Part shown: positions 6,001 to 12,000 of the stretch, one piece after another
Layout of the letters: every line of letters starts with the position of its first letter
How positions within the stretch are numbered: position 1 is the first letter of the stretch
Virus record (IMG/VR): IMGVR_UViG_2690316002_000015
From: a virus
Taxonomy: Duplodnaviria > Heunggongvirae > Uroviricota > Caudoviricetes
Direction: 5' to 3' (one strand)
DNA: 20,832 nt
Program-made: the position numbers

Positions 6001-9000
6001 GTGTTCTGCCATGCGCTCCTGAAACTCAACATCGTCATCAAACGCACGGATAATGGCTTTTTTGCTGGCCCCGTGGCGTTGCAAATGATCGATGCATAGC
6101 GATTCAAACAGGTGCTGGGGCAGGCCTTTTTCCATGTCGTCTGCCAGTTCTGCCTCTTTCTCTTCACGGGCGATCTGCTGGTAGTGACGCGCCCAGCTCT
6201 GAGCCTCAAGACGATCCTGAATGTAATAAGCGTTCATGGCTGAACTCCTGAAAATGGCTGTGAAAATATCGCCCGCGAAATGCCAGGCTGATTAGGAAAA
6301 CAGGAAATGGGGTTAGTGAATGCTTTTGCTTGATCTCAGTTTCAGCATTAATATCCATTTTTTATAAGCGTCGACGGCTTCACGAAACATCTTTTCATCG
6401 CCAATAAAAGTGGCGATAGTGAATTTAGTCTGGATAGCCATAAGTGTTTGATCCATTCTTTGGGACTCCTGGCTGATTAAGTATGTCGATAAGGCGTTTC
6501 CATCCGTCACGTAATTTACGGGTGATTCGTTCAAGTAAAGATTCGGAAGGGCAGCCAGCAACAGGCCACCCTGCAATGGCATATTGCATGGTGTGCTCCT
6601 TATTTATACATAACGAAAAACGCCTCGAGTGAAGCGTTATTGGTATGCGGTAAAGCCGCACTCAGGCGGCCTTGATAGTCATATCATCTGAATCAAATAT
6701 TCCTGATGTATCGATATCGGTAATTCTTATTCCTTCGCTACCATCCATTGAAGGCCATCCTTCCTGACCATTTCCATCATTCCAGTCGAACTCACACACA
6801 ACACCATATGCATTTAAGTCGCTTGAAATTGCTATAAGCAGAGCATGTTGCGCCAGCATGATTAATACAGCATTTAATACAGAGCCGTGTTTATTGAGTC
6901 GGTATTCAGAGTCTGACCAGAAATTATTAATCTGGTGAAGTTTTTCCTCTGTCATTACGTCATGGTCGATTTCAATTTCTATTGATGCTTTCCAGTCGTA
7001 ATCAATGATGTATTTTTTGATGTTTGACATCTGTTCATATCCTCACAGATAAAAAATCGCCCTCACATTGGAGGGCAAAGAAGATTTCCAATAATCAGAA
7101 CAAGTCGGCTCCTGTTTAGTTACGAGCGACATTGCTCCGTGTATTCACTCGTTGGAATGAATACACAGTGCTTATTCGTACTAATAAAATACCCAATTTT
7201 CTGTTTCTTGGTTGTGTCCAAAGTTATATTCAATATCTGGTGTTGATGTATCAATATTCTTCATACCATCAACAAGAGTTGATACAACAGCCAAATCTTG
7301 TTTGATTCTCATTAAATGGTATTTCTTCCGGCGCAATAAACTTTCAATGGCAAGTTTCTTCGTTGGGAATGCAAAAGATCTTTCTGCATTTTTTGCTACT
7401 TTCTTAATTGCATATCTATTTCTCCTTTGTTTCCATTCCTGTAACCACTGATTTGGTGCTGGTTTAAAATTAACAATCCAATGCGCAGGAACCAACCATG
7501 CATAATGCTCTGTCTGATGAAAAGCTATATATTGAAGTGCGAATATTTTTATCCCATCTTCTTCAACTGTCGCCTGGAATCTCCAGAAAACAGGCATTCC
7601 ATCATGTTCAGTTTCTGATTCAGGAAAAGGTACGCTCCATGATTTTGTCATATCTCACCTCAAATAAGTGGTTTGCTGCCTAATTTCATTTTCTGGCGAC
7701 CAACACAAGTCACCTCGCCGTCAGTTGTTTTGATTTCCGGTAGCCTGCCGCGTAAATGGCTACGTTTGGAAGACATACACCAGTTTCTGGTTGCTTATGT
7801 CCAAACTCATTCGCGTACACAATGGCCGCTCGCTCCAGATTGCGTCTGTATTCTTTCTGTTGCCAGATCACGTCCTGTGCCATGAACTTAATTGGCTTAG
7901 CGTCTTCTATGCGCTCAGGCGTTTCGTGAGTACCTTTAGCCTGAATCTGCGCTCTGCTTAGAGTAGGGCGGTGTAATACTTCTGAACTTATTGCTTCTTC
8001 GCGGGCCAGTACGCCGTTAGCTAATGCCTTTGCCTTTAAACGCTCACGACGACGAGAACGTGAATTGCCTTTGAACTGAGTTCTGCGTGTCATATAGACC
8101 TCCTGATGAACTTTGGTGGTGTGGTAGGTGGGAGACCCATTTCGACCTGTTTCGGCCTACTTCAATTCGGCAATAGTCCCGCAGGCCTCGCCGCTTTACG
8201 TGCGACATATTCCCGTCCATGAACCCTTCACCACACCCCAAAGTTCACTTTGGTTATTGCGCTTTGTCAGCGCCGTAGATTCATATTCGAATCGTTGTAT
8301 ATTTACCGCCCTGGTGAGTAATGCGTCCTGCTGATGGGTGAGCTTTATCGGAATGATAAATTAATGGCAATAGCAAAATGATAAATTCTCTTGGTTTTCA
8401 AATATCGTATTGATTCTTATGGTGTTTTATTTTGTTGTAGGAATTCGACAGGATAAATAAAGAGATTTGAGGGAGATCTGGATTGCGTTGTTTAGCAAGT
8501 TGTATCTATTTATTTTTCAACAAATACAATTGGTTATGTGTTTTTAGGTGTGGGATCGTGAGGCAAAGAAAACCCGGCGCTGAGGCCGGGTTAATGCGTT
8601 AATGCTGGGGAGTGATTTTTTTGTTGTCTGTTGGCTGGGTATTTTGTGGCGGCGCTTGCAAAGTGGAAGGCTGTTGCAAAGGTGCGTGGTCTGACTTTAA
8701 AGCTGATACCAGCCCGGGAATCGCAACTATTACAGCGATAATGACACTAAAAATGGCTAATCGTATAGAAATACCCGACTGAACACCACTAATTGCGGTA
8801 TTAACCCCTGTTATTTGTCCTTGAATTCCTTCGAATCTCCCATTAATTGCTTTTATATCGCCAGCAGCGCTATCCATCTTTCCATCGATCTTGGACGATA
8901 GAGAGCTTATGGCTGCATTAAGTGATGCAAATTGGACATTAACGCTTTCACGAGATAGAGCCATGTCAGCCCTAATGGAAGAAGCAATAGACTCCATCTC

Positions 9001-12000
9001 TGCTTTATTAGCAGCTAAGCGAGCATCAAGTTCCTCTCTGCTGATCGTTCCCACTTCTTCCTCCGTTTGTGGCGGTTTTATGTAATTATTTTGCACCTTG
9101 GTGGGAGAATTATCAAATTCAGCCTCAAAATCGGAACCGCCAACAACCTTCAACCTCCGGCTTTCAGATATGTTGGTGTCTTGCTTTCCATGATTATTTA
9201 AATTACTGTCGTCACTCATAATAGCTCTACGGTGAAAAATGATTCATTTTTATGAAGTTCATTTTTAGGGTCTTCATTATCTTGCAATATCCCTATAACA
9301 CTATACAGCCCTTTAGCTGGGACCCTAATTTCTTTCAATGTTACTATTACCTGTCCGCCAACCCCTGTTTCAAAATGGCTATCTTTCGTATCGATGAAAA
9401 GTGAAACTGATTCCGAAGAGCCGTCAGGGAATTGAATTTCCTCACCTTTTTTTATAATTAGGTGCGCGGGGATTACCATAATACCCAAATTATATCTTGA
9501 ATTTGGTTTCAACCCGATCATACCAACCCTGAAATCAATTGATAGCCGCGCAGGAAATTCATTGCATGTAAAATTAAGCGTCGGTTGGTTGGGTTCTTCG
9601 CTGCTATCAAATGGGGTTATAAAAGATATTCTTTCTAAATTAAGTGCCATAAATTCTCCTGCATCGCTGTATGCTCTACGAGCATCTCTGCGATCATCCA
9701 TCATCCAAACGTCTCTTCACTCATCCGAAGAAGCAGCAATCCGGGTCAGCACGCACAAGCTCAAGCGCATCAGTCAGCGAAAGTTCAGTACTGTACTGAT
9801 GCCATTTCATATCCTTCCGCATCCAATAGATTTTCCATCTATCCAGAGAACGTATGTACTTGATTCTTGCTGATGGCAGGATGTTTGTTTCACCTGGGTT
9901 GCCCTGCCACACGGGGCGCTGTTCGCCGATATCTATCGTTTGGTCATTGATGCTATAAACAATATCCAGTTCATTGCGGATATGTTCAGGCGGCCTTATG
10001 CTTTCAATGAATTGGTGAACTTCTTTTTTGACCGCTTGATATTCAAGGTCAGTGAACGCCATCTATCCTCCTCACCCAAACGTTTCTTCTGGCCACTGGT
10101 TACCAGCTATGTGACGATGAAGTCACGAACTTTTCAGCCACTCCCTTGCCTCGATGTCATCCAGATGGCGAGATTGCTTCAGAATACCAGCTACATACTC
10201 CACCTTTGCTACTTGATGATAAGGCAACGTTATAGGCCTGTGATCCTGGTTAATGCTTGTAAATTGGTATTCTCCATCTCTGTCATAGCCAAGAACCTTA
10301 ATCATGTTGTGTCCTTCAACGGTTCTGACAAACACCTCGTCACCCGGGAATACTTTGGTGTTAGGCTCAATGAGTACATATTCTCCTGATTTTATTCTGG
10401 GCCACATGCTGTCTCCTTTCACACGAAGACCAAAGGCATCTGGATCATCGCTATAAATTTTGAGCCACCCATCGCGCTCTTCGGTCATCTCGATGGCACC
10501 ATCAACACCAAGAATTGCCTCACCAACCACGCGCACTAACCCTTTTCTTACCTGACCGACAAAAGTTAAAGAATCTGAGCATGATGCAATTGGTGTTACA
10601 TCATGTACCAAATCAAGCCACCCATTAGGTAACCCAAGCGCGGCTTCAAATTTTCTTGCTAGTTTATCCCCTATGTTTCGAGTGCTTTTTTCACCGGAGA
10701 CTTGCGTGAGTTGAGAAGGGCTAACCCCAAGCTTATCGGCAAAGCTTGCATTAGTGTTACCCGCGATTTTTTTATGCTCATCTAGCAAAAACGCCAGATT
10801 CGATTTGCGAATATCTTTGTTTTCCATCTCACAATTTTCCCTCTATTTAGCAAATGGATAAATACGCAATATGATAAATTTACATTGCGGATGATTTATC
10901 AAAATGGTAAAGTTGTTCTGTGTGATAAACGGAGGCACTAATGAGTAATGAACTACTACGCTGGCGAAAAGAGGCTTCTAGTGAGGAATGGAAGCGACTC
11001 GCCGCATTAGCGAAAACTTCAGTTGGCTATCTTGACCAGATTGCATATGGATTTCGAAGAGCTTCCCCTGATAAAGCGAATGCAATCGAAGAAGCTACTC
11101 GTAATTTCACGGGTTATAAACCTGTGAAAAAGGAAAACCTAGTGTTCGTATCGCGTAGAGCATCGGCTGCATAAGTAACACCGCTCTTTTCACAATGGAC
11201 ATTCGTCCTACGTCGCTGACAAAGCGAGTCCCAATATATCTGACCAACTAAGGCCATATGCGTTTCCACGCATACCTTTCAACTAGCTATTCACTATTGG
11301 AAATCTTAAGAAATGGAACAAACAAGTTACAGCAAACTATCACAGCGAGAAATTGATCGCGCTGAAACTGATTTACTCATCAACCTGTCAACGCTTACCC
11401 AGCGCGGTCTGGCAAAGATGATTGGCTGTCATGAATCGAAGATAAGCAGAACGGACTGGAGATTTATTGCTTCGGTCTTGTGTGCTTTCGGAATGGCATC
11501 AGACATCAGTCCGATTAGCAGGGCTTTTAAGTATGCGCTTGATGAAATCACAAAGAAAAAATCCCCGGTGGCCGCCGGGGACTCTAAGCAAATTGATATG
11601 CAATTCTGAGGGAATTACTGGATCAATCCACAGGAGTCATTATGACAAATACAGCAAAAATACTCAACTTCGGCAGAGGTAACTTTGCCGAACAGGAGCG
11701 TAATGTGGCAGATCTCGATGATGGTTACGCCAGACTATCAAATATGCTGATTGAGGCTTATTCAGGCGCAGATCTGACCAAGCGACAGTTTAAAGTGCTG
11801 CTTGCCATTCTGCGTAAAACCTATGGGTGGAATAAACCAATGGACAGAATCACCGATTCTCAACTTAGCGAGATTACAAAGTTACCTGTCAAACGGTGCA
11901 ATGAAGCCAAGTTAGAACTCGTCAGAATGAATATTATCAAGCAGCAAGGCGGCATGTTTGGACCAAATAAAAACATCTCAGAATGGTGCATCCCTCAAAA

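Follow-up and report, generated by a model that had tools for sequence, protein, structure and literature searches.

What might a membrane protein contribute to a lysogen when its gene is placed between the repressor gene cI and the antitermination gene N? The question is raised by gene C, an open reading frame (ORF) for 206 amino acids (aa) in a stretch of viral DNA of 20,832 nucleotides (nt; IMG/VR record IMGVR_UViG_2690316002_000015), hereafter the window. The window is a lambdoid Escherichia coli prophage, with the query region 100% identical to E. coli 2013C-3342. Since gene C lies between cI and N, it falls in the interval where lambda keeps rexAB, a recognized mosaic hotspot that holds the abortive infection systems RexAB and BstA (PMC8585504). 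Gene C and the small upstream gene B would form an accessory pair expressed in lysogeny, in which C provides the constant membrane subunit and B is its partner. At a probability of about 0.45, we favor the reading that B+C is an exclusion module in which a swappable sensor is combined with a constant membrane subunit. Three observations led us to favor it: i) the pair is positioned on the lysogenic repressor transcript, ii) it replaces rexAB in natural phages, and iii) the partners are shuffled in a manner that resembles an arms race.

Architecture and conservation of the gene C product

The sequence-only reading of this DNA had described gene C as encoding a single-pass membrane protein with a C-terminal transmembrane (TM) helix, a Pro/Gln-rich tail beyond it and a repeat or coiled-coil region ahead of it; each of these elements was recovered, and the translated ORF matches the peptides quoted there exactly. 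The Kyte-Doolittle hydropathy of the protein, averaged over 19 residues, peaks at 2.71 for residues 154–172 (LAIFSVIIAVIVAIPGLVS), a maximum that was reached in only two of 5000 composition-preserving shuffles, while no 19-residue window above 1.6 was found in the products of gene B or of gene A, the ORF that separates B from cI. The tail, residues 176–206, contains six Pro and six Gln among 31 residues. Ahead of the TM helix, hydrophobic residues recur with a periodicity of 3.5–3.6, and BLOSUM self-similarity over residues 100–152 is elevated at lag 7 (z = 5.2, 0/2000 shuffles) and at lag 14 (z = 4.2). A single-sequence AlphaFold2 model places one unbroken helix at residues 61–178, with a block-mean predicted local distance difference test (pLDDT) score of 86–96 over residues 61–170; residues 1–60 and 179–206 are modeled at low confidence as disordered.

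The heptad register positions Ile, Val, Phe and Met at the a and d positions and Gly, Ser and Thr at the outward-facing c and f positions. The stalk would thus be a cytoplasmic coiled coil of some 90 residues, roughly 14 nm in length, and is probably trimeric, a stoichiometry favored under established coiled-coil rules by the beta-branched residues present at both a and d and, indirectly, by weak matches to trimeric stalks. From the lack of a signal peptide, the placement of Arg153 on the N-terminal side of the TM helix and the net-neutral tail, we infer that C inserts N-in, its stalk being cytoplasmic and its tail periplasmic; the cytoplasmic stalk that had been proposed from the sequence fits this charge distribution.

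Gene C is not a chance ORF but a genuine gene that is conserved among prophages. Its product matches phrog_5820, of unknown function, at E = 1e-76; a word-indexed search returned 28 clusters at 90% identity across the Enterobacterales, and an exhaustive profile search retrieved 300 representatives of 50% identity clusters at E <= 1e-3, 102 of which persist at E <= 1e-10. Among 50,697 phage records the gene is encoded only in HK542 and HK244, and a contig scan of genomes gave one locus, in Xenorhabdus, from which a complete C ORF was not recovered. Exactly one TM helix, at a median of 35 residues from the C-terminus, is present in 121 of 162 proteins of up to 300 aa, a set that also included B homologs.

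Conservation is distributed unevenly along the protein, with mean column values of 0.29 for the N-terminus, 0.84 for the Gly-rich heptads and 0.74 for the TM helix. Between residues 107 and 152, 19 of 46 columns are conserved at 90% or above, and the invariant residues of the protein include G113, G127, G131, G138, G145, G149, Q147, S148 and L154. Insertions and deletions among the homologs are exact 7-residue units, the cap motif SREELxAxLxxNKAE that opens the stalk is conserved family-wide, and many homologs carry the tail motif QP[IV][IV][IV]Q[VI]P, which is degenerate in gene C itself (QQPSTLQAPP). Many homologs also possess a conserved Met 2–5 residues before ISREEL, and some begin there, as seen in the family alignments and the representatives P0016, P0045 and P0104; gene C of the window lacks this Met. 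The ancestral protein may thus have consisted of the ~150-aa core alone, with variable N-terminal extensions acquired afterwards, or some members may produce a short isoform from an internal start.

The stalk and TM core is probably a distant relative of the CCDC90-like/DUF1640 family (PF07798) of tail-anchored coiled coils, rather than a member of it. PF07798 is matched at E <= 1e-3 by 26 of 98 remote C homologs, the best at 2e-8. Gene C itself scores 12.6 bits (E = 0.12), short of the gathering cutoff of 33.5, as are the five remote homologs with a PF07798 listing among those checked (18.8–27.5 bits). When CCDC90-like proteins, here the proteins with precomputed PF07798 matches that the wider C-family profile had retrieved, were aligned using hhalign, the enterobacterial C subfamily scored 92.3% (E = 5.4e-7) across 96 columns spanning stalk and TM helix, and the wider C family 97.8% (E = 1.1e-12). 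In both families a coiled-coil stalk ends in a C-terminal TM helix. The stalk opens with ATKDDLxxLxxNLRAEI in DUF1640 and with ISREELDAKLAANKAEV in C, so that ATKDDL and ISREEL both conform to [ST][KR][DE][DE]L, and a juxtamembrane QWxxG is found in DUF1640 and in the wider C family. The CCDC90-like relatives are membrane-anchored stalk proteins, and the DUF1640 beta-layer motif, prominent at the start of the stalk, caps trimeric coiled coils (Hartmann et al., PMC4786415). Of that motif, [aliphatic]-A-T-K-[polar]-[DE], the T-I-S-R-E-E-L of gene C fits the T/S, K/R, polar and D/E positions and the subsequent Leu, but not the Ala. Where CCDC90-like proteins possess a folded head domain, C carries its disordered and variable residues 1–57; the Gly-rich heptads, the Pro/Gln-rich periplasmic tail, the obligatory upstream partner and the adjacency to a repressor likewise set C apart. 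Prokaryotic DUF1640 proteins are themselves without an assigned function. A Candidatus Arsenophonus prophage region (L062) carries a bona fide CCDC90-like gene (1–165) together with a zinc-ribbon partner/C-homolog pair (4703–5606), so that both of these related families are found within a single element.

A constant core with exchangeable partners

Gene neighborhoods were compared using called-gene tables in 12 contexts, namely the window and 11 distinct loci. In all 12, a small gene of 63–162 aa lies on the same strand immediately upstream of C or its homolog and overlaps or abuts its start, the usual overlap being 4–23 nt; another 46 viral contigs, scanned mechanically for ORFs, agree with this arrangement. 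In the window, where translational coupling of C to B had been suggested, the two genes overlap as ATGA, with a weak Shine-Dalgarno sequence ahead of C. The pair directly follows a prophage repressor in ten of the contexts (the window, Cedecea, Pectobacterium, Yersinia, Enterobacter, Salmonella, Leclercia, a Rac-type locus from a sequencing run, and two loci of 60–62% guanine-cytosine (GC) content in which the C homologs are distant). These repressors are either of the S24 cI type or Rac-type helix-turn-helix (HTH) proteins with YdaS/YdaT on their other side. In Yersinia enterocolitica (L006, 4016–5699) the pair is found at a prophage end, beside a DinI-like gene and a Mu-type tail module; a protein identical to the one in this locus follows an S24 repressor in another contig (L007), and the partner and C thus change context as a pair.

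The partners fall into at least six classes without detectable sequence similarity to one another: the B type, a CxxC...CxxC zinc-ribbon type, a ~95-aa type found in Yersinia and Leclercia, a 99-aa type in Pectobacterium, a helical 94-aa type and a 98-aa type. The 149-aa Salmonella partner may be a remote B relative. No Pfam or NCBIfam family was matched by B or by six partners from other loci. Members of the zinc-ribbon-like class, which has two CxxC pairs and extends from Enterobacter to Arsenophonus (L008, 3639–4001; L009, 3669–3998; L062, 4703–5008), match each other at E = 1e-3 to 2e-4, and the scans gave this class no family assignment. B itself is predicted to adopt a generic immunoglobulin (Ig)-like beta-sandwich fold and has no Pfam match.

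The N-terminal segment of C follows the partner. All 36 significant pairs of N-terminal similarity fall within one partner class and none across classes, and the motif L[KR]V[VI]xG[ST]DFxxxF[DE]N occurs only together with B-type partners. The cores behave otherwise: the core of gene C is 74% identical to a core of the zinc-ribbon class and 62% identical to the Cedecea core of its own B class, while one core of the Pectobacterium class is 58–63% identical to cores of other classes and 38–42% identical to two members of its own. The relatedness of the cores is thus independent of partner class, which means that recombination has placed the partner, together with the N-terminal segment, on different cores. 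We propose the N-terminal segment as the docking site at which the partner would bind C.

The pair is mobile among phages in the same slot. Together with its terminator, B+C forms a module that is 99.2% identical by megablast to HK542 and HK244, the immunity regions of which were reportedly deposited by Degnan et al. in 2007. In both phages B+C directly follows a lambda-immunity cI, extends up to the annotated terminator Timm and replaces rexAB. In the window, no minus-strand terminator was found between cI and C, and the C stop codon is followed at a distance of 7 nt by a strong intrinsic terminator with an 8-bp stem containing six GC pairs and a subsequent T-run (RNA fold −17 kcal/mol, z = −2.9). 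The sequence-only assignment of this locus to the rexAB slot is borne out by this arrangement. A promoter-like site inside C, at 9116–9088, was no better than shuffled expectation and was rejected. The GC content of B+C, 0.39–0.43, is slightly below the ~0.46 of cI and A, a gap too small to count as a strong compositional moron signature.

A proposed exclusion model and its alternatives

Taken together, a model for B+C can be proposed. C would be tail-anchored in the inner membrane and present a flexible N-terminal segment of ~57 residues at the tip of its cytoplasmic stalk; the six last, Gly-studded heptads would run straight into the single TM helix, leaving ~30 Pro/Gln-rich residues in the periplasm. 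The small cytoplasmic partner would dock on the co-varying N-terminus and act as a specificity or sensor module; here this would be B, with its Ig-like binding fold, and elsewhere zinc-ribbon, helical or other small proteins. Engagement of a component of the infecting phage by the partner would alter packing in the stalk and in the Gly-heptad/TM segment, upon which the inner membrane would be perturbed, by permeabilization or depolarization, and the infection aborted or excluded in functional analogy to RexA/RexB. The B–C contact, the trimer, the topology, the anti-phage role and the membrane-perturbing step are all inferred, and a membrane effector role for C is plausible from its position and architecture. 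Neither B nor C has an enzymatic domain, no known pore-forming domain was found, and the conserved stalk, Gly-heptad and TM segment is the only plausible active element; that the Gly-heptads and the TM helix are the most conserved parts of the protein, with invariant Gly at the outward c and f positions, argues for an active role at the membrane.

The same conservation bears on an alternative in which C does no more than tether its partner at the inner face of the membrane on the 14-nm stalk, and the partner blocks ejection proteins or the DNA end with neither membrane damage nor death. Variable partners and a co-varying docking segment do resemble a specificity element, the TM helix is fully apolar, the CCDC90-like relatives are described as membrane-anchored stalks (PMC4786415), and the presence of a sieB-like exclusion gene nearby indicates that exclusion functions cluster in this region. 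One would, however, hardly expect a mere anchor to show the strongest conservation, and here both the Gly-heptads and the TM helix lie far above the N-terminus. The partners are tiny, of unrelated folds and without a recognizable DNA- or protein-blocking domain. Known injection blockers such as Imm, SieA and HK97 gp15 are polytopic membrane proteins; we consider passive tethering unlikely. A role in host physiology or lysogenic conversion, with C serving as a tail-anchored scaffold on a host inner-membrane complex in the manner of MCUR1/CCDC90B, ElaB or YqjD, or in the tuning, at the membrane, of the lysis–lysogeny circuitry of the prophage itself, for example through FtsH or HflKC, draws on the distant CCDC90-like relationship, on the overall tail-anchored coiled-coil architecture and on the periplasmic tail motif that the homologs conserve. 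The fast swapping of partner and N-terminus on a constant core is instead the signature of an arms race, the strict association with repressors across lambda-type and Rac-type phages mirrors RexAB and BstA, and DUF883, the ElaB family, is not among the Pfam matches even at E <= 1, all of which render a host-directed role rather improbable.

The gene order itself, a small upstream gene overlapping a larger downstream gene by 4–23 nt (ATGA here), is that of type II toxin–antitoxin (TA) systems, in which it is likewise typical for one conserved downstream protein to be combined with upstream partners that are unrelated to one another. C could accordingly be read as the membrane toxin of an addiction or stress module, neutralized by the upstream protein, with the co-varying N-terminus as the antitoxin-binding site. 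None of the partners scored above threshold against a known antitoxin or any DNA-binding family, though, and the module depends on the promoter of the repressor instead of an autoregulated one; we give this reading a low probability, and it overlaps with the favored one in that many TA systems act in phage defense. Least probable by far is a role in a lysis cassette or in the virion, whether as XhlA-like holin accessory, as spanin or as fiber fragment, the kind of homology that the sequence-only reading had named as contrary to its proposal. A few remote members and several long repeat proteins match XhlA, DUF2730, the YadA stalk or a phage short tail fiber; gene C itself has no such Pfam match, XhlA included, the structural matches are generic trimeric coiled coils, and its gene, placed between cI and N, belongs to the immunity region and the lysogenic transcript and not to a late operon. 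The i-spanins carry an N-terminal TM helix, the opposite topology to C, and a lysis or structural role was rejected on position and topology.

Several points weigh against the exclusion module that we favor. In two of the 12 contexts the pair is kept where no repressor is adjacent, and C is rare: among 5426 complete E. coli genomes, 51 carry it, each with a single chromosomal copy. Among the models of PADLOC-DB v2.0.0, none was matched by B, C was matched only by LmuB (E = 0.016, 11.9 bits) and no Rex model was found. The C family has no phenotype on record, its members being 'unknown' in PHROG and 'hypothetical' in RefSeq; literature searches on HK542/HK244, DUF3024, PDC-S43, the rexAB hotspot and coiled-coil prophage membrane proteins returned no study of gene C. 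The purely apolar TM helix is devoid of a polar pore-lining face, and pore formation by this helix alone is thus not obvious. The high conservation of the anchor might alternatively be explained by an interaction with a membrane complex of the host; eukaryotic CCDC90-family proteins act as scaffolds. The CCDC90-like relationship is itself open to objection on two counts, the retrieval of its comparison set by the C-family profile and the proneness of coiled-coil similarity to composition bias.

A broader proposal, which we regard as tentative and somewhat unlikely, is that B+C represents a widespread and unrecognized class of modular prophage immunity, in which a constant, DUF1640-like, tail-anchored and probably trimeric coiled-coil protein serves as membrane effector and is combined with sensor cassettes shuffled by recombination, each consisting of a small upstream gene and the matching docking segment. 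If this were true, the cassettes would give each prophage a different phage-recognition specificity, and a first prokaryotic function would be assigned to the DUF1640/CCDC90 superfamily. The constant core, the six or more unrelated partners and the co-varying docking segments predict a simple specificity swap, and the module that replaces rexAB is open to direct study in E. coli K-12, using phages that are already available. It would also furnish a first functional handle on prokaryotic DUF1640/CCDC90-like proteins, of which the eukaryotic relative MCUR1 is studied as a regulator of a mitochondrial channel. Should the role not be defense, a large uncharacterized family of lysogeny-expressed membrane proteins is defined nonetheless.

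Prophage setting and comparison with known systems

The features of the locus are collected in Table 1. On the minus strand of the window the order is int, exo, bet, gam, kil, cIII, the sieB-like gene, a 156-aa ORF and N, followed by the pL/nutL region, the terminator, gene C, gene B, gene A and cI; the plus strand then carries cro, cII, O, P and ren.

Table 1. Coordinates of the B+C module, its parts and neighboring features in the window.
Feature	Coordinates	Strand	Description
gene C	8599..9219	-	ATG start; 206-aa predicted tail-anchored coiled-coil membrane protein; phrog_5820
C residues 1-57	9049..9219	-	acidic, disordered, hypervariable N-terminal segment; pLDDT ~50
C residues 58-106	8902..9048	-	conserved cap motif TISREELDARLAANKAE, then first part of the helical stalk
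C residues 107-152	8764..8901	-	six canonical heptads; most conserved part; nearly uncharged beside the membrane
C residues 153-175	8695..8763	-	single transmembrane helix RLAIFSVIIAVIVAIPGLVSALK
C residues 176-206 and stop	8599..8694	-	Pro/Gln-rich tail, predicted periplasmic
gene B	9216..9650	-	144-aa partner; phrog_5893; predicted all-beta Ig-like sandwich
Rho-independent terminator	8571..8592	-	Timm equivalent, ends the cI-A-B-C unit; annotated Timm in HK542
mobile B+C+terminator module	8560..9719	-	shared with HK542 and HK244
gene A	9721..10062	-	113 aa; DUF3024; PADLOC PDC-S43, E = 7e-42
cI-type repressor	10123..10827	-	HTH and peptidase S24; heads the transcription unit
156-aa ORF	7181..7651	-	between the sieB-like gene and N; phrog_1636
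N	7710..8093	-	N-like antiterminator; phrog_271
masked run of N bases	12276..12576		301 bases, in the replication gene O region
masked run of N bases	19981..20297		317 bases, near 20 kb

The start of gene B is most likely the ATG at 9650, which is preceded by AGGAG and yields 144 aa, the size annotated in HK542 and shared by every B homolog, though the ORF could run upstream to 9704. Gene A had been taken together with B and C as a three-gene cassette, a grouping that did not hold. A is found alone beside cI, without B+C, in many 933W-type Shiga toxin (Stx) phages, no more than 18 of the 51 C-carrying E. coli genomes possess the full A+B+C stretch, and A is a separate, independently mobile module that is not an obligatory part of B+C. 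Only A, among the three, matches a defense-candidate model, the single-gene PDC-S43, and it is a candidate for a separate defense gene stacked between cI and B+C.

The 156-aa ORF on the pL side matches its PHROG, of unknown function, at E = 3e-112 and no Pfam, NCBIfam or PADLOC family, and is an uncharacterized accessory gene. The ORF listed as N matches Pfam N_peptide at 2e-15; it seems to be under-annotated in the identical RefSeq record, where only a 69-nt 'regulator' pseudogene fragment is marked. The dip in GC in the composition profile of the window is only apparent and is due to the two masked runs.

A direct family assignment of C was not reached: Pfam, PHROGs, NCBIfam and PADLOC gave either 'unknown function' or a sub-threshold coiled coil, the best Pfam match being Baculo_PEP_C at 19.6 bits against a cutoff of 38 bits. 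When the C and B profiles were searched against PDB sequences, the only hit under E = 0.01 was the coiled coil of a phage short tail fiber (E = 8.9e-5, with the wider-family profile), which was regarded as compositional, while HA2, SmhB, sigma-1, the SlaB-like 8qox and 6h9l stood at E >= 0.012. The other weak matches of C are also mostly to trimeric stalks, including influenza HA2, reovirus sigma-1, the SlaB-like membrane-anchored stalk and, in a long family hit, YadA-stalk repeats, and these and the toxin matches lie at E >= 0.006 or far below the family cutoffs. C resembles such stalks (archaeal SlaB, the 'conserved membrane protein' of PDB 8qox, trimeric autotransporters, HA2 and sigma-1) in its Ser/Gly/Asn-rich heptads with a beta-branched core that lead into a TM helix. 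Those stalks are extracellular, whereas that of C, which has no signal peptide, should be cytoplasmic. Residues 113–170 of C, an uncharged, Gly-rich amphipathic stretch together with the hydrophobic helix, align with the membrane-inserting head of SmhB and MakE, of the tripartite alpha-pore-forming toxins SmhB, AhlB and MakE; this match is compositional and not significant (E 0.006–0.013), and size, fold and context differ from those of C.

Closer parallels are offered by the systems that share the position of B+C. BstA of prophage BTP1 is, like C, encoded by an accessory gene on the repressor transcript and is found in diverse Gram-negative prophages (PMC8585504). It differs in being a single cytoplasmic protein that is associated with DNA replication sites and has no membrane anchor, and it has no homology to C.

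RexAB is the oldest known abortive infection system, and its mechanism is still unresolved. B+C resembles the RexA/RexB pair of lambda and the RexAB-type pair of the Pseudomonas putida prophage P1 in comprising two co-transcribed genes that directly follow the repressor and end at Timm, and in the predicted combination of one cytoplasmic with one inner-membrane product. The likeness of C to RexB that the sequence-only reading had drawn does not extend further: RexB-type effectors possess four TM helices (PMC12894663), whereas C has one, placed after a long coiled coil, and neither B nor C has a convincing Rex or PADLOC model. RexA is a DNA-binding dimer (PDB 8TWQ), and the predicted Ig-like sandwich of B is not RexA-like. 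The B+C genes are also much smaller than rexAB, and no sequence or fold relationship of B or C to RexA or RexB was found. B+C is thus a positional and organizational analogue of RexAB that lacks both of its structural features, and as an unrelated module that replaces rexAB in HK542 and HK244 it would offer a tractable second example of a sensor joined to a membrane subunit in the same slot.

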